From a virus (Duplodnaviria > Caudoviricetes): a stretch of 64,000 bases of DNA. The notes beneath the pieces are model-generated. The model worked only from the letters and a program-made list of their open reading frames with translations, ran no database searches and had not been told where the DNA came from. Positions 12,739-52,110 of this stretch are shown here, one piece after another. Both the position numbers and the translations under genes were made by a program. The DNA lies in IMG/VR virus record IMGVR_UViG_3300008107_000028, positions 34,195 to 98,194 of that record; one strand, 5' to 3'. The stretch's first letter is position 1; each line of letters opens with the position of its first letter.

Positions 12739-12843
12739 TATTTTATCATATTATTATAATTTTATGGTGTAATAAAAAATAAAGAAAATAATTGATAAAA
12801 CAAAAAAATATTTTTATTATATTTGTGATATAATTATTAAAAT

Positions 12844-13035
12844 ATGATCATCATCGAAGTAAACAAAGAAAAAAACATTGAGTCCGCACTCAGGACTTAT
12901 AAAAACAAAGTTCAAAAGTCGAGACAAATACAAGAACTTAGAGATAGACAGACATACAAAAAACCCTCAATAAAAAAGAGAGAACAGGTTTTAAAAGCTA
13001 TCTATGTACAAAAAGTAAAAAACGGTCTTAATTAA
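12844..13035 (+). CDS. rpsU: Ribosomal protein bS21 (phage-encoded)
   Basis: MIIIEV..NIESALRTYK.K....ELRDRQTYKKPSIKKR...KAIY matches the Bacteroidota bS21 pattern; TATATTTG promoter upstream. Confidence 0.93.
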   Translation: MIIIEVNKEKNIESALRTYKNKVQKSRQIQELRDRQTYKKPSIKKREQVLKAIYVQKVKNGLN

Positions 13036-22565: not shown

Positions 22566-22625
22566 ATCATTTGTTTTTAAGAATGATTTTTATTATATTT
22601 GTTTAATAACTATAAAATTATAAAC

Positions 22626-24644
22626 ATGGCGGTAGATTTTTTTGAAGAAGGACAAACAACCAACCCTAAAAAAATTAGAAAAGGGTCAAATACACCTATT
22701 CTTGATAATTTTTCAAGAGATTTAACTCGACTTGCAGAGGAAGGTAAAATCGATCCTGTTGTCGGGAGAGATAAAGAAGTAAAAAGAATTGCTCAAATTC
22801 TTTCACGCAAGAAAAAAAATAATGCAGTGATAGTTGGAGATGCGGGTGTTGGTAAATCTGCACTTGTAGAAAAACTTGCATTGATGATTAATAAAGGAGA
22901 TTGTCCGAGTAATTTAATTGATAAAAGGATCGTATCATTAGATTTAACCTCTTTAGTTGCCGGTACAAAATATAGAGGTCAATTTGAAGAAAGAATAAAA
23001 GCAATTTTAAATGAATTACAAGAAGTTACAAACGTTGTAGTTTTCATCGATGAACTACATACTATGGTAGGTGCAGGAAACGCAAGTGGATCAATGGATG
23101 CGGCCAATATTTTGAAACCCGCACTTGCAAGGGGCGAATTACAATGTATTGGTGCGACAACGTTTGATGAATATAAAAAACATTTAGAAAAGGATTCGGC
23201 ACTTGTTAGAAGATTTCAGAAAATTATTTTAAAAGAACCCAATCAATTAGAAACAATCAACATTTTAAATAATTTAATCGGTTCGTATCAAGATTTTCAT
23301 AAAGTAAAATACGAAGACGGTGTCATTGAAACTATTGTTAAGTTATGTGCTCGATATATTACTGATCGACAATTTCCTGATAAGGCAATCGATGTCTTAG
23401 ATGAACTCGGTTCAGAAAAAAGAGTCTCGTCTAAAGTACCTGATATTATTGAAAAATTAAAAAAAGATTCGGAGGAATTAAAAGAAAAAAAATTTCAAGT
23501 TGTTAAATCTCAAAATTACGAACAAGCGGCAAAATTACGAGATGAAGAAAGAAAAATATTACTAAGACTTGATGAAGAAAAACAAAAATGGTTAGATAAA
23601 TTAAAAGATAATAAAACACCAATAACCATTGATGATGTTTATGAAATTATTTCAAACATAACAGGTGTACCCATTTCTAAATTAGATAAAAAAGAGACTG
23701 ATAAGTTACTTAAAATGGAAGATATTCTCTCATCTAAAGTAATTGGTCAAACGGAAGCAATTTTAACAATATCTAAAGCGGTTAGAAGGAATCGTGTTGG
23801 TATTAAGGACGCAAATAAACCAATTGGATCATTCATTTTCTTAGGATCCACGGGTGTTGGTAAAACATTCTTAGCCAAATCAATTGCGGAATTACTTTTT
23901 GGTGATCCTGAAAAAATTATTCGTGTTGACATGAGTGAATTCATGGAAAAACATAATGTGTCTAAATTAATTGGTTCTCCTCCAGGATATGTTGGTTATG
24001 ATGAGGGTGGTCAATTAACAGAAAAAATTAAGAATAATCCATTCTCTGTTGTATTGTTTGATGAAATTGAAAAGGCACATAAAGACGTTTTTAATATCCT
24101 ACTTCAAATTTTAGATGAAGGACATTTAACTGATTCATTCGGAAGAAAGGTAAACTTTACTAACACAATTATTATCATGACATCAAATGTTGGTGCAAAA
24201 AAAGTTTCGGATTTTGGTGGAGGTGTTGGATTCGCAACATCGTCGTCTGAACAACAAAAATATGAGGTAAAAAAATCAATTATACAAAAGGCTTTAAAAC
24301 AACAATTCAATCCTGAATTTTTAAATCGAATTGATGATATTATTTTATTCAATTCATTAAATGAAGAATCACTTAAAAAAATTATTGAGATCGAGATTGA
24401 AAAATTATCAAAAAGACTAAAAGAAAAAAACTATACTGTAAATTTTGATAAATCTGTGATCAATAAAATATACGAACTAAACTCACAAGAAGAGTATGGT
24501 GCAAGACCCTTGAAAAGATTGATTCAAAATTTATGTGAAGATTTTTTAAGTGAGGAAATTTTAAGGGGAAACATAGTAGAAAATGATCCAATAACCTTGA
24601 AATATAAAACGGATAAATTAGTAATTCACAAAAAAAGTTTATAA
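22626..24644 (+). CDS. clpC: ClpC-type AAA+ unfoldase lacking the N-terminal Clp-repeat domain
   Basis: Two AAA modules ([16 protein letters not shown]), UVR-type M-domain '[12 protein letters not shown]', ClpP-docking 'VGF' loop. Confidence 0.88.
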
Positions 24645-24683
24645 ATATTTGTTTTTTTTAAAAATTATATATATTTATATTCT

Positions 24684-24786
24684 TGTAGGTTCTCTTTGTC
24701 GATAACCTCTTCGTTTTTTTCTAAAAGTAAGTGGAGTTGAATCCACCGAAAGACCTTGAAACCCCGACAACTTGTTGGGGTTTTTT
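24684..24786 (+). ncRNA. Putative small RNA 'A'
   Basis: TATTTATA at 24672-24679, internal hairpin GTGGA/TCCAC, terminator 24759-24786, no ORF; complementary to the minus-strand RNA at 46608-46650. Confidence 0.55.
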
Positions 24787-24816: not shown

Positions 24817-25014
24817 ATGAGAAAATATGCTTTTATTATGACAATCATTGCAACAATTGCAATGGTGTCCTGTGGTAGCGGGTCAACCACAACAGAAACA
24901 ACTGACTCTACTGCGGTTCAAGTTGATTCATTGGCGGTTAGTGCAAATGATTCAACTGTTTCACAAATCCCAACTGAAAAAGTTGAGAAATCTGAGACTG
25001 AATCGGCGAAGTAA
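24817..25014 (+). CDS. Small lipoprotein
   Basis: MRK + hydrophobic stretch + MVSC lipobox, T/S/D-rich tail; start reassigned. Confidence 0.75.
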   Translation: MRKYAFIMTIIATIAMVSCGSGSTTTETTDSTAVQVDSLAVSANDSTVSQIPTEKVEKSETESAK

Positions 25015-25070
25015 AACTAATGAACCGGATTTTTCCGGTTCATTTTTCTATTTATATTAAATTAGTGAAT

Positions 25071-25490
25071 ATGGAATACATCGGAGAATTAATTTTATTA
25101 AGAGGACTACCGGGTAGCGGCAAAAGTACTCTTGGTGAAATTATATTATATACACGTGGATCGGATAACACAAATGCGGTATTGTCTGCTGATGATTATT
25201 TTATTGACGTTAATGGTAATTATAATTTTGATTACACAAAATTAAAAGAGGCTCACAATGATTGTGTATTAAGATGTGTTGAAAGAATGAAAAATCAAAT
25301 CGTTAAAATTGTTGTGGCTAACACATTTACACAAGAATGGGAAATGGAAAAGTATTTTGAAATTGCAGAAAGATACAAATATAGAGTTCATAGTTTAATT
25401 GTTGAAAATAGACATGGTAGTGAAAATATACATAGTGTACCAAAAGATAAACTTCAACAAATGAAGGAGAGATTTCAAATCAAACTCTAA
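25071..25490 (+). CDS. Polynucleotide kinase-like P-loop protein (AAA_33)
   Basis: 'LLRGLPGSGKST', 'SADDYF', 'VANTF', 'HSVP'. Confidence 0.85.
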   Translation: MEYIGELILLRGLPGSGKSTLGEIILYTRGSDNTNAVLSADDYFIDVNGNYNFDYTKLKEAHNDCVLRCVERMKNQIVKIVVANTFTQEWEMEKYFEIAERYKYRVHSLIVENRHGSENIHSVPKDKLQQMKERFQIKL

Positions 25491-25550
25491 TGAGTAAGTT
25501 TTTCGTTTCCTACGCATATCCGAAAAAAGAAAAAAAGAAAAGATTATTTA

Positions 25551-26615
25551 GTGTTATCAATATTAGAAAAATATTATCAAAATGGTTTGGTTTTAAAACA
25601 AACTCATCCGACTCTTGATCTATCTATATGGAACTATTCCCCAAAAGTTCAGTACGAAAAATTATGGGATGATGTCACTAAAATTTGTAGAGGTTTAGTT
25701 ACAAACTCCGAAGGAAAAATAATCGCAAGACCATTTAAAAAATTTTTTAATTACGAAGAACATTCTGTGAATGAAATTCCAAATGAATCATTTGAAGTTT
25801 TCGAAAAAATGGACGGTTCATTAGGAGTTGTTTTTTATTATCACGGAGAATGGCACATGGCAACAAGAGGATCATTTATCTCCAATCAATCTCTTGTTGG
25901 TCTCAAAATGTTAAAAGAACTTTCGATTTTAAAAAATTATCCATCAACGGGTTTAAATCGTAATTGGACTTATCTATTTGAAATAATATATAAAGAAAAC
26001 AGAATCGTTTGTGATTACGATTTTGAAGGTTTGGTTTTACTTGGTGCATATGAAACAGAATCAGGTAATGAAATTGATTTTGATATATTAAAACATAAAG
26101 TAGGTCTTTTTAATGATGTTAGAATAGTTAGAAAATATAATGGTATTAATGATTTCAAAAAATTAAAAGAAACGATTGCCGATGATCGAGAAGGTTATGT
26201 TATTCGTTTTAAAAACGGATTTAGAATAAAAATAAAAGGTGAAGAATATATTCGTTTACATAGAATATTAACAAATATATCCAGTAGAGATATTTGGGAA
26301 CACCTTAAAGATGGAAAATCCTTAGATGAAATTCTTGATAAGGTTCCCGATGAATTTTATAATTGGGTTAAAGAAACTAAAAATAACTTAAATGATGAAT
26401 TCACAAAAATTGAAAATGAATATAAATGGATTTACAAGATTATTACAAGATCATCAAATTCAACAGAAAGAAAAGTTTTTGCAGAATATGCATTGAAATA
26501 TAAACATTCATCTATATTATTTTCAATGTATAATAAAAAAGATTATAAAAAAATAATTTGGAAACTATTATATCCAAGTTACACAAAACCATTTAAAAAT
26601 GATAAAGAAAATTAA
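25551..26615 (+). CDS. RNA ligase (T4 Rnl1-like)
   Basis: 'CRGLV', 'RPFKKFFN', motif I 'EKMDGSLG', 'EGYVIR', 'KIKG.EY'. Confidence 0.9.
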   Translation: MLSILEKYYQNGLVLKQTHPTLDLSIWNYSPKVQYEKLWDDVTKICRGLVTNSEGKIIARPFKKFFNYEEHSVNEIPNESFEVFEKMDGSLGVVFYYHGEWHMATRGSFISNQSLVGLKMLKELSILKNYPSTGLNRNWTYLFEIIYKENRIVCDYDFEGLVLLGAYETESGNEIDFDILKHKVGLFNDVRIVRKYNGINDFKKLKETIADDREGYVIRFKNGFRIKIKGEEYIRLHRILTNISSRDIWEHLKDGKSLDEILDKVPDEFYNWVKETKNNLNDEFTKIENEYKWIYKIITRSSNSTERKVFAEYALKYKHSSILFSMYNKKDYKKIIWKLLYPSYTKPFKNDKEN

Positions 26616-39951: not shown

Positions 39952-40025
39952 GGACCCTTAGCTCAGTTGGTTAGAGCAAATGACTCATAATCATTAGGTC
40001 CACGGTTCGAGCCCGTGAGGGTCCA
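39952..40025 (+). tRNA. tRNA with CAT anticodon, likely tRNA-Ile2 (lysidine type)
   Basis: AATGA-CTCATAA-TCATT; acceptor GGACCCT has the C4-G69/C5-G68 TilS determinants; no initiator features. Confidence 0.85.
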
Positions 40026-40082
40026 CAAAGGACTTTAATGAACGAAGTACAAGTTTGGAGTAGGTTAGTCCCACCTACAATC

Positions 40083-40154
40083 GCTCAGTTCGTCTAATGG
40101 TTAGGACGTGTCCCTTTCACGGACAAAATACGGGTTCGACTCCCGTACCGAGTA
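40083..40154 (+). tRNA. tRNA-Glu(TTC)
   Basis: TGTCC-CTTTCAC-GGACA; one A-C mismatch in the acceptor stem. Confidence 0.9.
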
Positions 40155-40168
40155 CTATAAAAATTTTT

Positions 40169-40522
40169 ATGAGTAAAGATCAAATGTATAATTTAATAAT
40201 ATCATTTATATTGTTTACAATTGGATCATTTGGTCATTGGTATATTATGTATTGGCAATTTAAAACACCTAATTGGATAAAAAGTCCGATTCCATATTTA
40301 CTGTCTGTTGTTTGCACATTTTTGTGGATCGCAGCTTCTCACTATGGTGTCAAATCTTTTAATGGTGAAATGTGGAGTAACAGATTTTTATTTTTTGTTA
40401 CAGGAATTCTTGTTGCATCTATATTATATCCGTATCATTTTAACCAACACTTTACAGTCAAAACTTTAACACAATTAATTTTGGCTTTACTTATAATAAT
40501 CGTATCATTATTTTGGAAATAA
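40169..40522 (+). CDS. 4-TM membrane protein (SMR/DMT-like topology)
   Basis: Four hydrophobic segments; start reassigned to MSKDQ after tRNA-Glu. Confidence 0.65.
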   Translation: MSKDQMYNLIISFILFTIGSFGHWYIMYWQFKTPNWIKSPIPYLLSVVCTFLWIAASHYGVKSFNGEMWSNRFLFFVTGILVASILYPYHFNQHFTVKTLTQLILALLIIIVSLFWK

Positions 40523-40535
40523 AAAAATCAAGTTT

Positions 40536-40787
40536 ATGTTATCTACTTATTATGTTATTTGTGTAATTTATTGTTTTTATCAATTGAGTAATCGTTATAG
40601 AAAAGATATGATGCCGGGAGGTTTGGGTGTCACACCTGCGATGGACGCAATTATGGTTATTATTTTAGGTTGGGTGTTGGCTCCTATTGACTTTTTTCTA
40701 ACATGGGTTAGATTATATAAAGAAGCTGAAGAGGCAAGAAGGAGAGGAAATAAACAGATTTTAAATGAAGACGATGAAAAACTTTAA
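40536..40787 (+). CDS. Small membrane protein
   Basis: Two hydrophobic segments. Confidence 0.6.
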   Translation: MLSTYYVICVIYCFYQLSNRYRKDMMPGGLGVTPAMDAIMVIILGWVLAPIDFFLTWVRLYKEAEEARRRGNKQILNEDDEKL

Positions 40788-41235
40788 AACATTATATGGA
40801 ATAAAAATTGATAATTTAATTGATTATATTAAGGACTACATAAAAGATAGAAATAATATTGAAATTTTGATAGGATCAGATTCACAATGTTTTAGAAATA
40901 ATAAAACTGTTTATGGTGTTGTGATTGCATTATACACAGCAGGAAAGGGTGCTCATGTTTTATGTAAAAGAGAAAATGGTCCAATGGAATATAATACACA
41001 AAAAAGACTTTTAACTGAAGTTTGGAAATCTGTTGAAACCGCCGAATTCTTAAAAAATAATGGGTTACCTAAACCAACTTGGATTGATATTGATTTGAAT
41101 CCAGATCCAAAATACAAATCCAACTCTGTCCTGAGACAGGCGGTAGGTTTGGTAGAAGGTATGGGATATAAAGTAAGATATAAACAATTAGGTGCAATGT
41201 CAACATATGCTGCAAATCATTTAGTTAGAATTTGA
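40765..41235 (+). CDS. RNase H-like YkuK (DUF458) family protein
   Basis: 'IGSDSQ', 'RLLTEVWKS.E.A', 'IDIDLN', 'YAANHLVR'. Confidence 0.8.
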   Translation: MKTMKNFKTLYGIKIDNLIDYIKDYIKDRNNIEILIGSDSQCFRNNKTVYGVVIALYTAGKGAHVLCKRENGPMEYNTQKRLLTEVWKSVETAEFLKNNGLPKPTWIDIDLNPDPKYKSNSVLRQAVGLVEGMGYKVRYKQLGAMSTYAANHLVRI

Positions 41236-41279
41236 TTTATTAAAATAAAAATCATATATTATTACTATAATTTAAAATT

Positions 41280-41489
41280 ATGAAGTGTATAAAAAATAGT
41301 ACTACAGGAAACATAATTCGCGTTGAAGATAAACAGGCATTTCAAATAGTCGGTAATACTTGGAAATATGTTTCTAAGGATGAGTGGAGAAAATATAAAA
41401 CACCGCAAGTTGTTGAAACTCAACATGATATGGGTGGATCATATGAAGTAAAAAAAGAAAACAAAAAAAATTTAAAAAAAGTTAAGTAA
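41280..41489 (+). CDS. Small hypothetical protein
   Basis: 69 aa; TTGATT-N17-TATATT promoter upstream. Confidence 0.6.
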   Translation: MKCIKNSTTGNIIRVEDKQAFQIVGNTWKYVSKDEWRKYKTPQVVETQHDMGGSYEVKKENKKNLKKVK

Positions 41490-41566
41490 AAATTTTGTTT
41501 TTGTAAAAAGTTATTGTATATTTGTAAAACAATCGGAAACGATAAGTTCTTTGAATCTAAAATATT

Positions 41567-42366
41567 GGCCGCCTATGGTCGATTAAAATAAACCATGAAA
41601 GTGGTATAAAGTGAATCTGAATTGGTTATTTAGGTTTGCGGTTTCCGAAAGGGAACTCGAGTAGGCAAGCGGGATATCGTCTGACCTTAAGTACTGAGGG
41701 TAACACTGTAGGGAACGTGGTTAGATGACCGAGCGATACCGGTCGTTTGGTTGAGGTGGGAACACCAATAAGAATAACTCGATAGAATTATTGTAAGAAG
41801 TGTAGTTATCCAACTACACAATTGCGAAATTCAATACAATGGGGATCTTAAAACCGAAAGGTATGTTCATGTACAGGTGGTGCTGTTATGATCCTTGATT
41901 TGAATCTACCAAGGTTCTTATCTTGAAGGAATCCAAAAGTATGGAGGCAGGGATGTCTCAGAGGGTAGTTTAGTATCGTGTCATCCAAAAGATGGCATGG
42001 CTGGTTGACGGACCACTACCTTCCAAATCGGTAACTAACTTTGTTAATTAAGGTTTAACAAACTCAAAATTAAACAAGGAAAAGTGTCCGTCAGTCGTTA
42101 GAGACAGGTGACTACATAGTCGTGAGGGGTTCACGGCCACAAAGGGTCCCAAACCCAATGTGAATTACAAGAAAGTTCTCTAATCCCGCAAGGATGAGTT
42201 GGGGTGGCAACCTCAAAGAGTAATCAGTATTGTGAGAGTATCTAATGACTTAAGGATTGGTTAATCTAATTGACCGTCACTGGTTGGTACAGTTCAAAAG
42301 ACTGTGGATAAGAAAGGAAACAATAATCTTTCTAAAGTCAACTATTAAAACTTGTAATCTCAGAGG
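41567..42366 (+). ncRNA. GOLLD-like giant structured ncRNA (~800 nt)
   Basis: ORF-free, GC-elevated, many GNRA-type hairpins; segments I recall as GOLLD-like (GGCCGCCTATGGTC, TACTGAGGGTAACACTGTAG, ACAGGTGGTGCTG, GAAAAGTG, TGTAATCTCAG); near tRNAs in a phage. Confidence 0.75.
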
Positions 42367-42368
42367 AT

Positions 42369-42971
42369 ATGTATGATCATATTACGATAATTGCGGATAT
42401 ACAGAATGAAAATTTTGACATTTTAAACAAGTATTTCGATTCATTAAATGATTCTAATTACATTGATAATGGAATAAGAAATTTTTTAATTTATGCTGAC
42501 GAAAATTATTTGATGAATAATGAAGAATATGTTGAAAAAATAGAAAAATTATACATTTTTAAAAATAATGAAATACGAAATATATTAAATTTATCTCTTG
42601 AATATTTAAGATCTTTATTCTCAATAAGAAGAATTTGGTTAATGTCATATTCACCAAAATCAAACATCAGTTTTCATGTTGATAGTGAATTAAAACGTCA
42701 TTTAATCTGCTTTAATGAAGATGATATGTTTTTTAATTATGAGTGTAATGGTGGTGATCTTCATAAAAGAAATTTATCATATACCGAAAATTTAGAAAAA
42801 ATGATTAATGATCCATTAAAATTTAATGATTTCTTTTTGAAAGATGACCCTAACAATAAAATAATTAATTCGAAAAAAAATAAAATTTACAGTTTTGGTG
42901 ATTGTGGTCATTCTTTTTTTAATGGTTCAGATACAAAATATAGATTTAATTTAGTTTTTGAAATATTTTAA
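42369..42971 (+). CDS. Putative 2OG-Fe(II) oxygenase (Asp/Asn beta-hydroxylase-like)
   Basis: 'FHVD', distal 'HSFFNGS..YRFNLV'. Confidence 0.6.
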   Translation: MYDHITIIADIQNENFDILNKYFDSLNDSNYIDNGIRNFLIYADENYLMNNEEYVEKIEKLYIFKNNEIRNILNLSLEYLRSLFSIRRIWLMSYSPKSNISFHVDSELKRHLICFNEDDMFFNYECNGGDLHKRNLSYTENLEKMINDPLKFNDFFLKDDPNNKIINSKKNKIYSFGDCGHSFFNGSDTKYRFNLVFEIF

Positions 42972-43001
42972 ATATTCAATTTATTTTGTTATATTTCCAT
43001 A

Positions 43002-43739
43002 ATGAAAATTGTTTGCATATCCGACACACATGGTCTTCATAAATCCATGGAACACTTATTACCTGAAGGTGATATTTTAATTCATGCTGGTGATTGCACA
43101 AATGTTGGTAAAGAAAAAGAAATTGAGGAGTTTATATATTGGTTTCAAAATTTAAAAGGTTTCGATACGAAAATTTTTATTGCAGGTAATCACGATTTTG
43201 GTTTTGAACATTATAATGGTGTTAGACATAATAATGAGGCACCGTGGCTACATCATTTATTGAATGAAGAAAACTTATCACAATCGGATGTTGTTTATTT
43301 ACATGATTCCGAATTTATCATTGAGTCACCTGAATTTTCCAGACCAATAAAATTTTATGGATCACCATGGCAACCTGAATTTTATAATTGGGCTTTTAAT
43401 CTTCCAAGAAATGGTTGGGAGTTAGAAGTTAAATGGAAGGACATTCCTGAAGATACTGATGTTTTAATTACACACGGACCACCTCATGGAGTTAGAGACT
43501 TTACACCAAACAATCTACAAGTTGGTTGTGAATTACTAAGGTTTCGCGTGGAACATTTAAATCCACCTGTTCATATTTTTGGACATATACATGGGGCATA
43601 TGGTGCAGCACAAATAGGTGAAACATTATATGTGAATGCTTCTACATGCACTGAAAGATACAAACCAACCAATAAACCAATCATCATTGAATTAAATGAA
43701 TATGATGGTAATATAATTTCTTCTTATGTCGATTATTAA
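43002..43739 (+). CDS. Calcineurin-like metallophosphoesterase
   Basis: ISDTH, IHAGD, AGNHD, THGPP, FGHIH. Confidence 0.93.
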   Translation: MKIVCISDTHGLHKSMEHLLPEGDILIHAGDCTNVGKEKEIEEFIYWFQNLKGFDTKIFIAGNHDFGFEHYNGVRHNNEAPWLHHLLNEENLSQSDVVYLHDSEFIIESPEFSRPIKFYGSPWQPEFYNWAFNLPRNGWELEVKWKDIPEDTDVLITHGPPHGVRDFTPNNLQVGCELLRFRVEHLNPPVHIFGHIHGAYGAAQIGETLYVNASTCTERYKPTNKPIIIELNEYDGNIISSYVDY

Positions 43740-44400
43740 TCCTGTTAGTGTTGTTATATCAACAAGGCAAATAGATGACAAATATTTAGAACATGTTTCT
43801 AAAATGTTTTCACATCCAAAAACTGAAATAATAGTATATGAAAATCAAAATGAATTTTCATTACCATACTTGTATAATAAAGGGTTAGATGAATCAACGA
43901 ATGATATTGTTGTTTTCATGCATGATGATCTAATTATTGAAACTACAAATGTCACAAAAAAAATTGTTAGATTATTTGAGACCAATCCCGATCATGGGAT
44001 AATAGGAATAGCGGGTACCAATAATTTAATTAATGGTATGTGGTGGACAGATAGAAAATCTATGTATGGACAAGTAAAACATGAACATGAAGGTAAAATT
44101 CATAGGAATAATTATTCAGGACCATACAACGAATTTTTAAAAAATGTGGTTTGTATAGACGGACTATTTTTCGCAGTTCACAAAAAAAGAATAAAAGAAA
44201 AATTTGATGAAGAATTTGTTGGTTTTCATTTTTATGACATACCGTTTTGTGTTTCTAATTTTATAAAACAAGTTAAAATCGGAGTAACCACCAAAATTAT
44301 GGTTGTTCATAAGTCAATCGGGATGGTAAATAAACAATGGGAAAAGAATAAACTATTTTTTGAGGCAAAATATGGTAATCTTCTTCCACTGACCTCGTAG
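43726..44400 (+). CDS. GT-A fold glycosyltransferase
   Basis: 'YNKGL...VVFMHDD', 'GIIGIAG', 'IDGLFFA', 'FDE.F.GFHFYD'. Confidence 0.85.
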   Translation: MSIINPVSVVISTRQIDDKYLEHVSKMFSHPKTEIIVYENQNEFSLPYLYNKGLDESTNDIVVFMHDDLIIETTNVTKKIVRLFETNPDHGIIGIAGTNNLINGMWWTDRKSMYGQVKHEHEGKIHRNNYSGPYNEFLKNVVCIDGLFFAVHKKRIKEKFDEEFVGFHFYDIPFCVSNFIKQVKIGVTTKIMVVHKSIGMVNKQWEKNKLFFEAKYGNLLPLTS

Positions 44401-44449
44401 ATGATTTTCTAAATTAAAGAAGTATTTATTTATATAAAAACTTCAAACT

Positions 44450-44644
44450 ATGGGTACAGTTTTATTAATTTTAGCAGTATTAGCAGGTGTGGCATTTCTT
44501 TTAATTAAGAGTGGTAAACTTAGCGATAAAAATGGTAACAATATTCCTGATGTGGTTGAAAAACCTATTGTGGAAGTAGTTGCAAAAGTTAAAAAAACCG
44601 CTAAAAAAGCAACTGCAAAAAAATCAGCGAAAAAATCTAAATAA
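44450..44644 (+). CDS. Small membrane protein with a histone-like K/A tail
   Basis: N-terminal TM, DKNGNNIPD motif, KKATAKK tail. Confidence 0.65.
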   Translation: MGTVLLILAVLAGVAFLLIKSGKLSDKNGNNIPDVVEKPIVEVVAKVKKTAKKATAKKSAKKSK

Positions 44645-44716
44645 TCATTTAAATTTATAGTATTGTGGGTTAAAATTAGGTTTTTAACCCTTTTTTTTCT
44701 ATATTTGTACTATATT

Positions 44717-45122
44717 GGGGGTGCTTGGATTTGACGGGCGTTGATATGGTAAATGGGCACGTAGTCGGATGTCATCTACGACTTAAATCTATGGTGATAA
44801 AAATTAAACGGCAACGTTTACAACAACATGGAAGTATCAGGTCTTCTTGCAACTTCTAAAGTGGCTGCCTAATTAGGTCCCCACTAACGGGTCGATGGAC
44901 ACATAACCTTGGAACAGAAGTCCCTACGGTGTGATACCACCAAAAGAGTGTCAGGGAGTTGTTTTCGGTTCAATCCTATTTAATAGGAACCGACCACAGT
45001 TGTGAGTTCTGATGGAAAAATAAGAACCCTCTATTTGTCAGTTGAGAACTAACTGAATAAACGTGTAGTCCATTTATGATATGGCGGTTCGGACAAGGGT
45101 TCGACTCCCTTCACCTCCACCA
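44717..45122 (+). ncRNA. ssrA: tmRNA
   Basis: 5' GGGGGTG / 3' CACCTCC-A-CCA with G3.U70; GATTTGAC D-loop analog; T-arm GGTTCGACTCC; tag ORF at 44810-44872 GNVYNNMEVSGLLATSKVAA*. Confidence 0.93.
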
Positions 45123-45157
45123 AAAATTAAACCCATCAATTGATGGGTTTTTTTATT

Positions 45158-45646
45158 TTAATCACTTGATTTGTTTATGTTTGGGTCTGACATATTCTGA
45201 ATATACGCATCAACTAACCTACTCACTGCTTCAGGTTTTTCATCTGCTTTGAATTTTACTTTAATTCTGGACATACCAGACCTATCAGTATTTTTACCAG
45301 AATCAACTTCTATACCTTTGATGTTGTGTTCGTACCCTTGTTTTTTGAATAAACCCAATAACGACCTTTTTAGGTCTGAAACATTTGTCTCATCCTCACC
45401 AAATATTAATCTGGCCTCAAATTCAATATCTAACTCGTCTAATCCTATGGAAGAGTGATCCGCCAAAATATAAAGAGGTACATCTAAACTCTTATCTCCA
45501 ATAATGAAGGTATGAAATTTAGGTGTACCATCTTGATTGAAATAGTTTCTAATGGCATTTATATGCTGTCTTTCACTTATACCCTGAGCGACCATGGCAG
45601 CCTCCAAAAGTCCACCAACAAGTTCTTCTATATTTAATCTTGCCAT
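45158..45646 (-). CDS. DUF2589-like protein
   Basis: 'LEAAMVAQ...HIN....YF', 'VPLYIL......LDELDIEFE', 'PEAVSRL'; paired with a paralog. Confidence 0.7.
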   Translation of the reverse strand: MARLNIEELVGGLLEAAMVAQGISERQHINAIRNYFNQDGTPKFHTFIIGDKSLDVPLYILADHSSIGLDELDIEFEARLIFGEDETNVSDLKRSLLGLFKKQGYEHNIKGIEVDSGKNTDRSGMSRIKVKFKADEKPEAVSRLVDAYIQNMSDPNINKSSD

Positions 45647-45696
45647 AATTATGATTTATATTAAAATATAACATAAATCATTCACAAAATCAAACA

Positions 45697-46293
45697 TTAT
45701 TTACTTGGGTCTGCCGTAAGTGGAATTAAAGATGGTTCTAACATTTGAGTTAAATAATCTGATAATTTCAACATACCTTCAGTTGCGGGTAATTGTTCAG
45801 CATGTACTTTTACCTCATATTTTGCTGAGTTATCTGTACTTCTTGTATTCTCTTTGTGTGTGGCAACCTTTCCAGCAACGGTTGCAGAAAATTTCATTCC
45901 CCACCAACTTGCTGATGCTGATGCTGAATATGAAGTCTCACTATCTGAACTTTCCTTTGCGGTTTCAGATGTTTTAACCTCCATTGTGAAACCAATATCG
46001 GCGGATGTAATGGCTAAAGAAGGTAATGGAACTAATGGTAACATAGGAACTTTATTATACAATTTCTGTATAGTTTGTTCACCTGTTGCACCGTCAGTTA
46101 CTACCCTGTTCATTTCTACGTCCAATGAACGAGCACTTGTTTTACCATCCTTATCTTTTTCGAAAGCAACCTCTGAGATATATCTCCAAGTAACTTCGTT
46201 TAATTTTGCTTGACCTTTAGCCATACCGACAATAGGTGAAACAATTAGATCTTCAATTGGAAGACCCGCAAATTGATCTGCAATTCCTGGCAT
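45697..46293 (-). CDS. DUF2589 family protein
   Basis: 'QFAGLPIEDLI.SP.....GQ..L', 'VPML.LVP.PSL.I', 'RSTDNSAKY.V.V.A...EG...L'. Confidence 0.8.
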   Translation of the reverse strand: MPGIADQFAGLPIEDLIVSPIVGMAKGQAKLNEVTWRYISEVAFEKDKDGKTSARSLDVEMNRVVTDGATGEQTIQKLYNKVPMLPLVPLPSLAITSADIGFTMEVKTSETAKESSDSETSYSASASASWWGMKFSATVAGKVATHKENTRSTDNSAKYEVKVHAEQLPATEGMLKLSDYLTQMLEPSLIPLTADPSK

Positions 46294-46344
46294 AAAATTT
46301 GAATTTAGTTTGTTTTATTAACTATAAATACTTCAATAAATCTA

Positions 46345-46548
46345 TTAGGAAAACTTAACCATACCCTTATATTGCCCTTTTATCTTTTCTATCTCAGACA
46401 TTGTTTCTTTGTAGGTTTTAAAAATATCTTCATTAACGGTGAAATTAAAACTTGTTTGACAGTGAGGACATACACATATTGGGTTTTTCATTATAAATTC
46501 TAAAGTTAATCCTAAAGGATTTTTACATGTGGGACAAGGAAACGACAT
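46345..46548 (-). CDS. Small zinc-ribbon protein
   Basis: CPTC...CPHC. Confidence 0.7.
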   Translation of the reverse strand: MSFPCPTCKNPLGLTLEFIMKNPICVCPHCQTSFNFTVNEDIFKTYKETMSEIEKIKGQYKGMVKFS

Positions 46549-46588
46549 AATTGAATATAATAATAAAATATAAAATAATAAACTATAT

Positions 46589-46680
46589 AACGAACAAAGA
46601 GGTCTTTAGGACCCCTTTGCCGAGATTAGAATACCTCCTTTCGTTTTTTCATATTATCACTTAACGGCGACCAAACCAAT
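46589..46680 (-). ncRNA. Putative small RNA 'B' with an extended Shine-Dalgarno-like tract and a mini-ORF MKKRKEVF*
   Basis: TATTTATT at 46691-46698, GAAAGGAGGTATTCTA, terminator-like hairpin CAAAGGGGTC/GACCTCTTTG. Confidence 0.55.
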
Positions 46681-47834
46681 TAAGATCTATAATAAATATC
46701 TTTTAAATTTCTTCTTACAGATTCCTTAATTATTTTTTTTATTTTTTTATTTTCTTCCAATTTTTTCAAATCAGGAACTTTGGATCTTATTACATTATAT
46801 TCATCTTTAGTAATTCCGTCACCACTTGAAATCCAATCTAAATTTTTTAATTCGTCAATTAATTCCTGAGTTAATGAATTACCATGTCTTCCACTAAGAA
46901 ACTTTTTATTTAATAACCCAATTATATCGTTTTCACATCCTATTTTCCATTTGGATTTTTCTAAAGATGCAAGAGAGCAATAATTTTGTGTTTTTTGCGG
47001 TTTTGGTGGAGTTGGTTCTTCTTTGGGTTTTGGAACTTCTGTAGGTTTTGGGTTCGGTTTATTGTCTACTTGTATAACTTGATCTTCTTCAGAATCACTT
47101 TCATCATCGTATTCACCATCAGGTATTAAGGACTTAAATTCGTATGTTCCGGTATATTTTGGATGTGTTATTTTTAAAGTAAAATCACAATAAACTGTAC
47201 CATTTTCATCAGGTTCAGGACATTTGAATTTTACGGTACCTATAGATGTGGGTACCTTTACTCCTTGCAAATATGTAAAAACATTTAGTACGTCTGTTCT
47301 TTTTGTTAATTCTAATACAAGAATTGTGTCTTTATCTTTTTCTATTTCCAATTTTACAACATCAGTGGGATCTTCTAAACTTATAGATTTTTCTAAAATA
47401 CTTACCATCCCGATTTGATCATTTTCATAATCACCATAATATTCTTCAATATCTCTTTGTGGTTGTACACAATAGTTTGTGTTTTTAACAAAAGAAAGAT
47501 CACATGCGTATGTTAAGAAAAAGTCTTGTTCAGACATGTTTCTCATTTCATCATTTTTAACACTTCCTTTGGCAATTTTGTATATGTCTTTAATACCACT
47601 CATTTTTGGATAATCCGGTAATTTTTCAATTGATGAAAAAAACAATTTACCCCAAGCTTGATATAACGCTTCTTTTTGTGATTCATTCTTACCATCTTCT
47701 AATTTTTTAAATGAGTAATATTTTTTTTCCTTACCAACAGGAATAGAAACAGCATGTTTAGTTGAATCATATAGAATTTTTCTAAACTCTTCAGTGGTGT
47801 ATTTTTTTTCTTCTGTTGATTGTTCTTTTATCAT
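46680..47834 (-). CDS. Hypothetical protein, probable head-internal
   Basis: 384 aa; IKE motifs; P/K-rich linker. Confidence 0.6.
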   Translation of the reverse strand: MIKEQSTEEKKYTTEEFRKILYDSTKHAVSIPVGKEKKYYSFKKLEDGKNESQKEALYQAWGKLFFSSIEKLPDYPKMSGIKDIYKIAKGSVKNDEMRNMSEQDFFLTYACDLSFVKNTNYCVQPQRDIEEYYGDYENDQIGMVSILEKSISLEDPTDVVKLEIEKDKDTILVLELTKRTDVLNVFTYLQGVKVPTSIGTVKFKCPEPDENGTVYCDFTLKITHPKYTGTYEFKSLIPDGEYDDESDSEEDQVIQVDNKPNPKPTEVPKPKEEPTPPKPQKTQNYCSLASLEKSKWKIGCENDIIGLLNKKFLSGRHGNSLTQELIDELKNLDWISSGDGITKDEYNVIRSKVPDLKKLEENKKIKKIIKESVRRNLKDIYYRS

Positions 47835-47856
47835 AAAATTTGTAACTTTTTTTGTT

Positions 47857-49779
47857 TTATCTGGTTAATACATGATTCAATAGACTATCGATGTTTCCGT
47901 CGTATCCTTTAAATGTTGTTGTGTCATCGGCAAGTTGTTGATAATTTGGTACCTTTTCCATTAAAATTCTATTAGCTTCGGTTGTGTCAACTTTAGCTTC
48001 CTTAATTGCGATCATTAAATTTTCTTTTGTCATTTCAGGTGTCCCACCCTTTTCTAAATTTGTAAGAATGGCATATAATCCGGGTGATAAACCTTTTGAT
48101 AAACTTGTCATAATATCTTTACGATTAAATTTAAAATTTTTAAACATATAATCGTTCCATATTGTTCTTATAAATGGCCACGGGTTGTCAAGAAACTCAA
48201 CCTCTTCTCCGCCAAACCAAGCCTCATCGTCTACAAATGGTATGTCAATACTTGTCAATTTCCTGTCAAGTAAACCAAGCATTGATTCTAAAAAACCAAT
48301 TGCTAAAGGTGCATATATCAATGTTGACATAACTAATTCACCAAGTTGATATCCTCTGTATTTTGTAGATGATAGTAACCATCCAGGTTGTCCACCATAA
48401 AATTTATCATTTGCATCAATTTCTTTACTAAGTCTAAAAGTACCACTTCTTGCCCACATACCGAGTCTCATGAATCTATTTTTAATTCGTACAGAACTTT
48501 CCACCTCCTTGATATTTTCTGATCCTCTTCCTCTCCAAAATCTTATGAATGCATCTATTTTTGAAACCACTTTTGGGGGTAATAACATTTGTTTACCTGC
48601 ACCAGAGGCACTTTCATAAAATTTTATCCATTCCATGAATATATTTTCATCAAAATTTCCATCAGGATTTTCTAATTTTTTTAAGAATGGTGTCGGCATC
48701 ACATTTTTAGTTCCATCCCAAAATTCTTTTATTTGAGATCTATTAAATTCAGATATTTCTCTTGATAATTTATTTAGTTTATTTAATTTTTCTAAATCTA
48801 TATTATTACCCTTTTCAATATCATCAGATATCTCATCTATTATATTTCTGAATTGAATTTTAATTTCATCTAATTTAGTTTTTGAATTTCCAGCAATTTT
48901 TTTATACAAAGCTCCAACCGTACTACTTAGTAATAAATCATTTTTAAAGAAATATGTCATCAGAAGACTAAAAAAATTGTCATTAGAAACATCAATTTTG
49001 AAATTTCTCTCAATAAATCTCAACATTTCAGGATCCAAAGGCTGACTCAATGAATTTTTTTGAGCAAAAAACGCTTCATAATCACCGTTTTTTGCATGTT
49101 GTATCATCATATTTACATGTTTTTGATCTTCTGGATCTAACCTTTGTAAATAATTTCTGAAGGCATCATCTTGAATTTGACTATTTTTAGGATCTATAAA
49201 AATATCTCTTTTTGTTTTTGGAAGCTTTGTTTCTAAATAATTTAATATTACAGGATCAAAAAATCCACCTCTTTCGGCTTGTAATCTTGCAGTTTCAAAC
49301 GCCTCTTTTTCTCCTGCCTCAGCTAAAGCCTCTAAATCATCTAACGCTTTTCGAGTATTTGGTGCAAAAATATTTTTATATTGTTCTAAAACTGTTTCTC
49401 TTATGTCTTGATATTTTGATTCCTTAAATATTTTTAAAATAAAGTCTTTTGCAAATGCAATGTATTCATCATCAGATCCTTTTACTGCGGCACCCGTATT
49501 AACTTTTTTTGTGTCATCCACTAATTCATTAAACGTTCTAACACCCTTTTGTTCTAATTTATCAAAACTTGATTTTGTTCTTAAACCATTATACGCATCT
49601 TCAAATCTTGATTTAATACGAGTAAGTGCGGGTTCAGAAGAACTTAATAGTTTTTTTAATAAGACTCCACCCCACCCATAAGGGTTACCTGGTCCTGATT
49701 CTTTTAAAATTGATGTGCGTTCATTAATACCCATCAATTTTTTTTGTCTTTCTATTTCTAATAATAATTTATTTTTCAT
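47857..49779 (-). CDS. Large helical hypothetical protein, probable processed virion/ejection protein
   Basis: N-terminal 'LLLEIERQKKLMGINE..ILKE' propeptide-like segment; hydrophobic segment near residue 480-500. Confidence 0.55.
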   Translation of the reverse strand: MKNKLLLEIERQKKLMGINERTSILKESGPGNPYGWGGVLLKKLLSSSEPALTRIKSRFEDAYNGLRTKSSFDKLEQKGVRTFNELVDDTKKVNTGAAVKGSDDEYIAFAKDFILKIFKESKYQDIRETVLEQYKNIFAPNTRKALDDLEALAEAGEKEAFETARLQAERGGFFDPVILNYLETKLPKTKRDIFIDPKNSQIQDDAFRNYLQRLDPEDQKHVNMMIQHAKNGDYEAFFAQKNSLSQPLDPEMLRFIERNFKIDVSNDNFFSLLMTYFFKNDLLLSSTVGALYKKIAGNSKTKLDEIKIQFRNIIDEISDDIEKGNNIDLEKLNKLNKLSREISEFNRSQIKEFWDGTKNVMPTPFLKKLENPDGNFDENIFMEWIKFYESASGAGKQMLLPPKVVSKIDAFIRFWRGRGSENIKEVESSVRIKNRFMRLGMWARSGTFRLSKEIDANDKFYGGQPGWLLSSTKYRGYQLGELVMSTLIYAPLAIGFLESMLGLLDRKLTSIDIPFVDDEAWFGGEEVEFLDNPWPFIRTIWNDYMFKNFKFNRKDIMTSLSKGLSPGLYAILTNLEKGGTPEMTKENLMIAIKEAKVDTTEANRILMEKVPNYQQLADDTTTFKGYDGNIDSLLNHVLTR

Positions 49780-49797
49780 AATACTACATATAAATAT

Positions 49798-52110
49798 TTA
49801 ATTCTTCTCGTTTGGAGATTTAACCGGTTCGGTATTATTTTTTATGGATTCTTGTTCTCTTTTTTTTCTCATAATATCAACTATACTCACGTTTTCATAT
49901 TTTTTCAAATTAATATAGAAATCCTCTGGTAAACCAAGTGTTTTTGCGTGTTCTATCAAGTCTTGATTATTCATTTCTTTTGCTATTAATATTTGTTTTA
50001 CTGTTTCAGACTTTAAATCTTCAACATTTTTAATATTTTTAACCTTTTCTGGTTTTGATAGTTCATTTGTAATATGTATAACTTGCGGTACCGTTAAATT
50101 TTTTAACTCTTCCTTTAAGAAATTTTTTATTTCGGTCATTTCAATAGGTGTAAAGGTGATACCCATATTTGGAAACAAATTGGCAAACGCATCTATAAAG
50201 TTAACCAATGTTGGAGGACCCCCTTCAAATGCAAAAACCTTAAATATTGGTTTTGCCCATATTCTAAATGGTGCCTTTGCAACTTCAACACCTGATTTTT
50301 TAAACCCTTCTGCGGCAATTTTTAATAAAATATCATGATTGGCTTTGATACCTTCTTTAGATAATGACATTGCATTTCTAAAAACATATCTTTGTGTGTC
50401 AGACATTGATGCAACGGCTTTTCTCATACTTTCAGCATCCCCAAAATCTACAGTATTTAATAATTTTAATAGTCCTTCGGATTCTTTAACTGAAATTTTC
50501 CCAACATTTTTTGCGTATGAAACAAATGGTATTACAGTACACATTAATGAAATAAGTGCACCGATTTTATCATTTCTACTCATTTGGTATGTTCCTACTG
50601 TAGAGTTGAAAAGTGCGTCTGCAACATATGGTGTCATAGCTCTAACGGTACCACTTCTTAAAAGTTGTATACCGACAATTCTTGCTGCCCCAATTGCTGC
50701 ACCCTCTATGAATCCTGCAATACCACCACTGGCAACAACTATTGCAACGTTACCGATGATTTGTGCAATTGTGCCGTATTTGTCCCACCACTCATCGAAA
50801 GCTTGACCAAACATTCCAACATCTTTATACCAGTCATCTTTTCCAAAAATAAAATTTATGTTTTTTATTGTTTCATTTTTATTTTTTAGTAATTCAAGTT
50901 GTTTTGGGTCTTCTAAAACATATGTTGATTTTATTATTTTTGTATTATCTATTTTTGGTGCGTTTGGATTTGGTTCTACAACTTTATTTTCAGGATAATT
51001 ACCAAAAATATTTTTATATTCTTCCCTATATTGATTCTCAGCTTCTTTTATTCTTTCATCATATAATTTTTTCTCTTCTGGTGTGATACCGTAACTGAAT
51101 AATGGTGACCAATATTCATTTTTTAAATCTATTAATTTTTCTTTAATAAAATCGACTTCTTTAATTTCAGTATCGGTCAATTTTCCATGAGAAAGTACTT
51201 TTTTTGTAAGAACTTTTAAACGATTTTCTAATGGACTTTTTTTAGAAAGATATTCAGGATATTTTTTCGGATCAAATCCTTTCGGAACAGATTCACCCGT
51301 ACTTGTTTTTCTTTCAAAATATCTTGTTTCCTCATCTTTTGTAATCCCTCTATTTGATTGTAACCACATATCATCCTCAAATTCAAATTTTTGATTTAAA
51401 TCTCTTTGATATCCTTCCATGTATCCATCAACTAAACTATCATAACTCCAAATTATAAAATCTCCAAATCTATTTTTTGATTGTATTTTTTTACTTCTTT
51501 CGGGAGTCATTATAGTTCCACTCGGATTATTCTTTTTCAAATATTCGTATGATGGTGTTGGAGGGGTAGGTCTTTTTTTTCCTAAATAAGTTTCTTTTTT
51601 GTTTGCATTGAAAATCTTAGGACCTAATCTTGGTTGACTCCAATAGTAACGATCCATATCCTGATATGAAATTGTTTTTGGTGGATTTTTAGGATCTTTT
51701 ATCAACGAATTTGATAATGAACTAACATCAACCGAACCTTTAGGTTTTCCATTGGAAAGCGGTCCTCCTTGGTCATATTCGTAACCAACTATTTTACCGT
51801 TTTCAAATTTTGGTGAATAAAATGGTGCTATTTGTTCCGATAATATGGATTCTTTTAACTGGTTTGCTTTACTACGTTTTAAAGTTGAACCAACAACATC
51901 CGACCATTTTGTGACCTTTATTTGGTTCGCAGGTCCTCTTGTGACACCACTCTCCCATTTCCCAACTTCAGGGTAACCAGTACCTCCAGATTGAGTTTGT
52001 GATGTACCAGGATTAGGTTCTGAGTTCGTATCTCCACCTTGTTCATCTATTTCCTTTTTTACAAGTTCGGTAATTAACTCATACTGTCTCTTATTAAGAC
52101 CTATCTTCAT
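49798..52110 (-). CDS. Large hypothetical protein, probable processed virion/ejection protein
   Basis: LITE/IDE/ILSE motifs; Gly/Ala-rich hydrophobic hairpin. Confidence 0.55.
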   Translation of the reverse strand: MKIGLNKRQYELITELVKKEIDEQGGDTNSEPNPGTSQTQSGGTGYPEVGKWESGVTRGPANQIKVTKWSDVVGSTLKRSKANQLKESILSEQIAPFYSPKFENGKIVGYEYDQGGPLSNGKPKGSVDVSSLSNSLIKDPKNPPKTISYQDMDRYYWSQPRLGPKIFNANKKETYLGKKRPTPPTPSYEYLKKNNPSGTIMTPERSKKIQSKNRFGDFIIWSYDSLVDGYMEGYQRDLNQKFEFEDDMWLQSNRGITKDEETRYFERKTSTGESVPKGFDPKKYPEYLSKKSPLENRLKVLTKKVLSHGKLTDTEIKEVDFIKEKLIDLKNEYWSPLFSYGITPEEKKLYDERIKEAENQYREEYKNIFGNYPENKVVEPNPNAPKIDNTKIIKSTYVLEDPKQLELLKNKNETIKNINFIFGKDDWYKDVGMFGQAFDEWWDKYGTIAQIIGNVAIVVASGGIAGFIEGAAIGAARIVGIQLLRSGTVRAMTPYVADALFNSTVGTYQMSRNDKIGALISLMCTVIPFVSYAKNVGKISVKESEGLLKLLNTVDFGDAESMRKAVASMSDTQRYVFRNAMSLSKEGIKANHDILLKIAAEGFKKSGVEVAKAPFRIWAKPIFKVFAFEGGPPTLVNFIDAFANLFPNMGITFTPIEMTEIKNFLKEELKNLTVPQVIHITNELSKPEKVKNIKNVEDLKSETVKQILIAKEMNNQDLIEHAKTLGLPEDFYINLKKYENVSIVDIMRKKREQESIKNNTEPVKSPNEKN

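Follow-up and report, generated by a model that had tools for sequence, protein, structure and literature searches.

Two intervals of the window, by which we mean the whole 64,000-nucleotide stretch of viral DNA that was analysed, are occupied by putative non-coding RNA genes: RNA A, of ~100 nt, at 24684–24786 on the plus strand, with its 5′ end placed by a promoter motif and its 3′ end by the T-run of a terminator, and RNA B, of ~105 nt, at 46583–46688 on the minus strand, with both ends putative. The window corresponds to bases 34195–98194 of a 98-kb viral record that was judged 29% complete, and its GC content is 31%. An Rfam 15 search of the window at gathering thresholds matched only a GOLLD RNA (41961–42366, plus strand, 317.7 bits), a tmRNA (44717–45122, plus strand) and five tRNAs. 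A bS21 ribosomal protein of 63 amino acids is encoded by an open reading frame at 12844–13035 on the plus strand (Pfam PF01165 above cut-off), and by the same Pfam match bS21 is encoded in all five clade records tested.

Related records are 324–336 kb long and 97–100% complete. They resemble the bS21-encoding freshwater Bacteroidetes phages of 293–331 kb, as these are presented in the main text of PMC9723584, in size, GC content (~31%), possession of a bS21 gene and origin from lake metagenomes or metatranscriptomes, a likeness of size, GC, bS21 content and source rather than one drawn from sequence comparison with those genomes. That main text, supplements aside, has 0 occurrences each of the terms tmRNA, small RNA and non-coding RNA. 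The clade bearing A and B is one of bS21-encoding freshwater jumbo phages, with hosts that are probably Bacteroidota. The phage does without Shine-Dalgarno (SD) sequences in front of its own genes: an SD-like 4-mer precedes 5 of 78 long open reading frames, compared to 6.6% of random windows, and the phage bS21 gene, 34 kb from B, has no SD.

A 49-nt repeat holding TTATTATATTTGT (12803–12851 and 22579–22627, 78% alike) precedes the bS21 and clpB-like genes, and its TATATTTGT also lies upstream of the tmRNA (44693–44701). The repeats and the tmRNA upstream motif probably act as promoters built on TAnnTTTG, the −7 consensus of Bacteroidetes. A search of sequencing runs found 11 lake or aquatic metatranscriptomes holding 5–9% of the words of window positions 40000–49999. 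Contigs of four metatranscriptome runs (four studies) lie on 41900–46900, where they cover GOLLD at high word depth; the tmRNA is covered by contigs of two of those runs, and B by no contig in the four, with contigs lacking strand and ends and small RNAs being easily lost from them. Two further stretches under contigs, 43168–43327 (run X1) and ~44404–44571 (run X2), match no RNA family and may be additional non-coding RNAs or gene fragments.

RNA A and its surroundings

A lies between a gene for a ClpB-like ATPase (22599–24644) and a small lipoprotein-like open reading frame. Among 80 loci related through the ATPase (78–87% protein identity), 77 had a full A downstream in the same orientation, a count that includes loci with another gene inserted between the ATPase gene and A; the remaining loci end at the ATPase gene (two) or are cut (one). 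Downstream of A, 24817–26615 (plus strand) holds the lipoprotein-like frame (65 amino acids), then an AAA_33/polynucleotide-kinase-like gene (25020–25490) and a T4 Rnl1-type RNA ligase gene (25551–26615, plus strand), the last two making up an RNA repair pair.

The promoter-like region of A (24649–24679, plus strand) consists of TTG at 24649–24651, an 18-nt spacer and TATATTTA at 24670–24677. The preliminary description had credited A with a motif and a terminator of its own, and both are there: TATTTATA occupies 24672–24679 and the terminator stem 24758–24784. ATATATATTTATAT, mostly with TTGAC before it, is kept upstream of A in related loci, and the 57 distinct A sequences share a promoter-like TTGAC...TATATATTTATA. 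The motif resembles the TAnnTTTG found upstream of the tmRNA, the bS21 gene and the clpB-like gene.

The predicted fold of A opens with hairpin P1 (24687–24708, plus strand), in which an AGGTT/AACCT stem closes a 12-nt loop, CTCTTTGTCGAT, at 24692–24703. One P1 stem pair (columns 9–24 of the alignment) is UA in 51 sequences, AU in 4 and CG in 1, and the loop sequence TCTTTGYCGA is invariant save for Y. According to duplex and cofold predictions, the P1 loop and 5′ arm (plus strand) form the A side of an intermolecular helix, helix I. The A side of a second such helix, helix II, is at 24704–24720 (plus strand) and reads AACCTCTTCGTTTTTTT, a segment also written CCUUUUCG; relatives read TACCTTTTCGTTTTTT, with CCTTTTCGTTT kept, and the A sequences share the single-stranded linker CCUUUUCGUUUU. 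Hairpin P2 (24731–24746, plus strand; GTGGA GTTGAA TCCAC) has a conserved GTTGAA loop and compensatory changes in four of its five pairs. The sequences also share GAAAGACCU, which is listed after P2 and before the intrinsic terminator (24758–24786, plus strand), itself a 12-pair stem followed by a T-run and kept in relatives.

Across the 57 distinct sequences there were 21 consensus pairs, 6 of them with compensatory changes, and 52 of the 57 fold better on the plus strand. A covariance model of the family (R1) found one copy in the window (119.7 bits; next best 19.5), and a pattern scan placed A in at least 149 viral contigs. No Rfam family fits at permissive thresholds, the best score being 23.8 bits where the gathering score is 55, and A as a coding sequence was rejected. 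In genomes of bacterial species, the search pattern matched 27 stretches, of which only 2 were real A RNAs by model R1 (L309:489-592 and L304:2776-2869, full length, 122.1 and 103 bits). Both are on short contigs binned into Bacteroidota metagenome-assembled genomes (MAGs; Flectobacillus and Chitinophagaceae), and may be a weak hint of host range or a carry-over of phage DNA during binning.

RNA B and its extended Shine-Dalgarno-like element

B is preceded on the minus strand by a promoter-like motif (46690–46700, GATATTTATTA) situated within the last codons of a 384-amino-acid open reading frame. In this promoter region TATAAATATC (plus strand) does not vary among 14 B loci, an invariant GATATTTATA lies upstream of B on the minus strand, and a TTTnGC-like element upstream of the motif was recognised by eye. 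The 384-amino-acid frame (46680–47834, minus strand), the last codons of which overlap both the motif and the B 5′ hairpin, had no Pfam or PHROG match, had no relatives in viral contigs and is absent from the related records G001–G003. Its appearance is that of an insertion that has separated B from the neighbours it once had. B itself is found ~45 nt beyond the tmRNA gene in G001 and G002, where the two converge head-on with a shared terminator between them.

The predicted 5′ hairpin of B (46660–46684, minus strand) has the conserved loop UUUGGUCRC and compensatory changes in its stem (columns 14–27: UA 22, UG 13, CG 6). The terminal hairpin (46595–46619, minus strand) reads CAAAGGGGUCC UAA AGACCUCUUUG and leads into a tail, UUGUUCGUU, that is conserved; a simple scan for terminators did not call it because this tail is not a clean U-run. 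The B side of helix I (46608–46623, minus strand, UCGGCAAAGGGGUCCU) overlaps the 5′ arm of the terminal hairpin, and that of helix II, from duplex and cofold predictions, is at 46633–46649 (minus strand, GAAAAAACGAAAGGAGGU). In 43 distinct B sequences, AAACGAAAAGGAGGU and AUCUCG are invariant, and 6 of 17 consensus pairs have compensatory changes, with covariation in two hairpins. B was found in 83 viral contigs by pattern scans, and its own 120 nt are 87% identical in G001 and 78% in G002. B works on the minus strand, where each of the 43 distinct copies has the more stable fold (mean −32.1 vs. −21.3 kcal/mol) and the helices contain 149 G-U pairs vs. 6 A-C.

No Rfam family fits B at permissive thresholds either (best 15, gathering score 75). 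B as a coding sequence was rejected, since the length of its variable linker changes among copies (7, 8, 9 or 10 nt) and no reading frame is conserved; the sole ATG frame of B in the window has 8 codons and is not conserved. A type I toxin-antitoxin system does not describe B, which lacks a start codon at SD distance.

The comparative sequences argue for two separate non-coding RNA genes of ~100 nt, A and B, each conserved and the two lying on opposite strands. For A this follows from its position after the clpB-like gene in 77 of 80 loci and its promoter-like motif, three hairpins and terminator, and for B from its being kept while its flanks are not and from its two covarying hairpins. At the level of sequence, A and B each keep a promoter-like motif and a terminal hairpin, the transcript ends being putative.

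Within B, positions 46629–46641 (minus strand) form an extended SD-like element, AAAGGAGGUAUUC, whose plus-strand sequence GAATACCTCCTTT is that of the 3′ tail of Bacteroidota 16S rRNA. The 16S rRNA of a Chitinophagales MAG ends in ...GCTGGAATACCTCCTTT, to which the plus strand of B in the window is identical at 13 of 13 positions. The preliminary description had noted an SD-like tract and had not recognised it as a perfect extended complement of the 16S tail, which is new here. A 17-mer of the tail was present in 29 of 201 sampled Bacteroidota genomes (15 with T and 14 with C at its variable site). Perfect complements of at least 12 nt to the tail occurred in 39 of the 43 distinct B copies, the longest being 13 nt in 25 copies and 15 nt in 5, and 24 copies fit the U form of the tail and 19 the C form. 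The predicted energy of the duplex between B and the 16S tail averaged −22.6 kcal/mol and was at or below −14 kcal/mol in all 43. In each of the phage records G000, G001, G002 and G009 there is a single such element, at B, and the 98-kb record likewise has one. A shares only runs of 5–6 nt with the tail.

The ribosome of Bacteroidia has been described as SD-blind, with bS21, bS18 and bS6 holding the 16S tail (PMC9976891; PMC7797042), and rpsU, the gene for bS21, as the only strong-SD gene in Flavobacteriales (PMC9976891). The extended SD of rpsU makes 9–13 pairs and is reported to be read by ribosomes without bS21 (PMC9976891; PMC7797042). B is like the rpsU leader described there in offering 9–13 or more consecutive pairs to the 16S tail where SD sequences are otherwise avoided, and its mean of −22.6 kcal/mol is at or beyond the −14 to −21 kcal/mol published for rpsU, with different energy programs behind the two figures (PMC9976891). 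It differs from the described leader in having neither a start codon at SD distance nor an rpsU frame. At SD distance B offers no ATG, GTG or TTG, none of its frames is conserved and it is not beside the phage bS21 gene, so it is not a leader of the rpsU type; lacking a start codon there, its SD element does not serve ordinary translation initiation. Three of five sampled host-type rpsU leaders (L329, L330 and L332) read AGAGGAGGTGT or AAAGGGGGTAT, and in these three the purine after GGU follows the 16S variant of the same genome. AAAGGGGGTAT also matches B of record G004 (L319), which has an unusual form with GGGGG.

Complementarity and co-variation of A and B

The resemblance between A and B that the preliminary description reported is found where it was placed, both sequences having been read there. 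In a first block, A 24687–24702 and B 46608–46623 are identical at 12 of 16 positions, and the four differences (A/B) are T/A, T/C, T/C and T/C, so that, as had been claimed, A has T where B has C at three of the four. In B, 9 inserted nucleotides separate this block from a second one (A 24704–24721, B 46633–46650). When the two intergenic regions were aligned locally, the score was 30, a value reached by 6 of 2000 dinucleotide shuffles and, against the whole A intergenic region, by 185 of 6538 genome tiles (score ≥30). Within the 98-kb record, the 35-nt core of A and the 43-nt core of B are each other's best hit, by a small margin (26 vs. 25 and 24), and B (minus strand) is the best predicted hybridisation partner of the 5′ part of A (−34.0 kcal/mol, next site −32.0), the antisense strand of A itself aside. 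Within this genome alone, the match is only marginal. The comparative sequences point to a resemblance that is far more than chance, since A and B are conserved in related phages and change together.

In the window, 21.9 kb separate A from B, which do not overlap and so do not form a cis-antisense pair; in relatives the distance is 4–27 kb. All four large B-bearing records searched hold exactly one A, and both RNAs are present in G001, G002, G004 and G009–G012. Same-sense paralogs, which the preliminary description had put forward as the finding that would speak against pairing, were not what we saw, with B favouring the minus strand in 43 of 43 copies and A the plus strand in 52 of 57, and six further whole records again have the two in opposite sense. 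In 18 of 18 readable contigs, A and B carry their shared sequence on one and the same DNA strand; being read from opposite strands, the two RNAs are complementary. In G001 (97% complete) and G002, the 11-mer AAACGAAAAGG occurs only on the antisense strand of A and at B.

We then considered the two variable features of the complementary segments in 33 A/B pairs from as many genomes. At the Y site of UCUUUGYCGA (A, B plus strand), the states were T/T in 17, T/C in 9, C/C in 7 and C/T in none, the last being the only state that gives a C-A mismatch. In the pyrimidine run of helix II, A with 3 nt went with B with 3 nt in 5 of 5 genomes and A with 4 nt with B with 4 nt in 24 of 27. These are raw counts from which kinship was not removed; we judged Y = C to represent about four independent lineages. 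Predicted duplexes of cognate pairs were stronger than those of non-cognate pairs (−35.4 vs. −33.2 kcal/mol), with 5 of 10,000 permutations reaching the cognate value (kinship likewise not removed). Covariation across related phages, one of the checks that had been proposed, thus came out in favour of the pair: complementarity is kept and co-varies in 33 genomes at the Y site and in run length. One exception is G011, in which A reads CGT for CGA with no compensating change in B. A variable region III was considered as a third helix and set aside, as it co-varied only weakly (587 of 20,000 permutations) and the rank of the cognate pair was often poor.

A and B are, as judged from their sequences, complementary over two helices totalling ~30 bp. 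Helix I (~12–15 bp) would pair the P1 loop of A with the base and 5′ arm of the B terminal hairpin, and helix II (~11–16 bp) the A linker CCUUUUCGUUUU with AAACGAAAAGG(AGGU) of B. Both formed in the minimum-energy cofold of the window pair (ddG −8.5 kcal/mol), helix I between the A P1 loop and B UCGGCAAAGGGG and helix II between A ACCUCUUCGUUUUUUU and B AAAAAACGAAAGGAGGU. Duplex and cofold predictions therefore bear out the expectation that pairing would cover both the SD-like tract of B and the 5′ arm of its terminal hairpin.

The proposed comparison of energies with shuffled controls gave a divided answer. The preference for cognate over non-cognate duplexes stood, but the net gain of −8.5 kcal/mol is unexceptional, being reached by 68 of 300 shuffled B sequences (mean −6.5, s.d. 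2.9 kcal/mol, n = 300). Raw duplexes were stronger in the forward than in the mirror combination of strands in 25 of 25 cases, whereas net of the RNAs' own folds the mirror strands gain more (mean −11.4 vs. −9.5 kcal/mol) and forward was better in only 9 of 32. The forward excess is confounded, since G-U positions are also explained by the hairpin of B itself. The same holds for the earlier argument that a bias preserving G-U pairs identifies A plus and B minus as the interacting strands: the purine-rich arm of B also pairs with its own U-rich 3′ arm, owing to which G/A changes would be tolerated there anyway. A would in effect imitate that 3′ arm.

We found little sign of other partners within the phage genomes. 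The complement of A block 1 occurred at one extra site, in G002 only, and that of the B hairpin loop at one extra exact site, in G001 only, neither of them conserved. A repeat scan of the window for other complementary pairs, which the preliminary description had thought might recur in this phage, returned low-complexity families only.

Explanations for the pair and a possible role at the ribosome

We lean towards the explanation that A and B are complementary RNAs encoded in trans, B being masked by A, a reading somewhat more probable than its negation given the conserved, co-varying sequences. A as a sponge or antagonist of B is plausible: pairing would hide the SD element and open the B terminal hairpin, and the resulting duplex would probably be a substrate for an RNase III-type enzyme. 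B, for its part, would engage the freed 16S tail of host ribosomes, or compete with rpsU mRNA for it. That B binds ribosomes is something we purely infer, as we do the direction of regulation between A and B, its timing and its outcome.

An explanation that dispenses with any meeting of the two RNAs, which we consider unlikely, is that each is tuned to SD or anti-SD sequences of the host and that their mutual complementarity is a side effect. B would then act as an SD decoy that draws the 16S tail, and A as a loose mimic of that tail, one that binds RNAs with an SD, host rpsU mRNA among them. This would account for the core of B being a perfect complement of the tail and for a net dimerisation energy that is not exceptional, and the A helix II segment UACCUUUUCG resembles the tail and, reasoning from the sequences, can pair with GGAGGU in a shifted register. 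However, helix I (UCUUUGYCGA vs. UCGRCAAAG) is unrelated to SD or anti-SD sequences and yet is the most conserved part of A, and it co-varies with B, as the missing C/T state (0 of 33) indicates. In addition, the best contiguous register of helix II, CCUUUUCGUUU with AAACGAAAAGG, is partly outside the SD, and the runs that A has in common with the 16S tail are only 5–6 nt long.

It is quite improbable, in our estimation, that A and B are paralogs kept alike by gene conversion, or carriers of a shared DNA- or protein-binding motif, with RNA-RNA pairing having no role. The direct DNA orientation of the blocks in all 18 contigs, with copies 4–27 kb apart, is what such a process would leave, and lineage-specific stretches common to A and B extend beyond the cores (for example, 15 of 17 positions match in G008). 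Concerted change is possible between direct copies, and the wobble bias has another explanation. Conversely, both elements show RNA-level constraints, on opposite strands, and their A- and B-specific parts stay distinct, which is unexpected under repeated conversion; whatever the cause of the likeness, transcription of the copies from opposite strands would still yield complementary RNAs. The idea that B is a full paralog of A was rejected, with model R1 giving B on the plus strand 9.5 bits (E 4.7, rank 31 of 46).

The preliminary description had also offered A as an antiterminator of B acting in trans, such that polymerase would read through into the minus-strand genes beyond it. Helix I does cover the 5′ arm of the B terminal hairpin, and three minus-strand genes are downstream of B in the window (46548–45158). 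We hold this to be very unlikely, in that the head-on arrangement of B and the tmRNA gene ~45 nt away in G001 and G002 leaves no gene to read into, and the genes after B in the window are outside the conserved arrangement, with the 384-amino-acid neighbour absent from G001–G003. Chance resemblance of two AT-rich intergenic regions, to which the marginal single-genome statistics could be taken to point, has a negligible probability and was judged refuted by comparative data, A and B being conserved, co-occurring and co-varying in 33 genomes.

Enterobacteria and their prophages provide well-known examples of base-pairing small RNAs (sRNAs) and of sponges for them; to our knowledge, almost nothing is known of such RNAs for lytic jumbo phages or phages of Bacteroidota, and we know of no Hfq-type context for the A–B pair. 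The immunity antisense RNAs of phages P1 and P7 (c4) and P4 (CI) pair through two short blocks; in c4-ant one block covers a ribosome-binding region, and in P4 one block provokes or alters termination. A and B share with these the use of two separated complementary blocks in a phage small RNA, and differ from them in that c4 and CI act on a target in the same strand and operon, whereas A and B are independent, on opposite strands and 4–27 kb apart. Like sRNA/sponge pairs, A and B are encoded far apart and would be two separately transcribed RNAs, one of which could sequester the other. What sets A and B apart from those pairs is that both are encoded by, and inherited together in, a Bacteroidota jumbo phage of lytic type, that their predicted pairing is long (two helices, ~30 bp) and that neither belongs to a described family. 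The phage origin of such an RNA has a precedent in AgvB and AsxR, described as anti-sRNAs encoded by prophages of E. coli O157 (PMC4104026). The titles and abstracts listed by literature searches contained no description of the A or B RNAs.

The pair amounts to two undescribed, mutually complementary RNA families that have been inherited together throughout a large clade of phages abundant in lakes. B carries the type of SD that is reserved for the bS21 gene in SD-blind hosts, and the phages bring a bS21 of their own, which ties the pair to the unsolved problem of host-ribosome takeover by phage bS21. Tentatively, and with well under an even chance of being right, B may be a phage decoy of the extended SD of host rpsU that grips the 16S tail, and A a timed antidote that masks the decoy. 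B would then grip ribosomes without bS21, or pull the tail from the bS21/bS18/bS6 pocket. The ribosome question is testable in vitro with Flavobacterium johnsoniae ribosomes, for which assays already exist. If true, a decoy of this kind would shut off autoregulation of host bS21 or help the phage bS21 to replace that of the host, and A and B together would constitute a virus-encoded RNA switch on ribosome specialisation.
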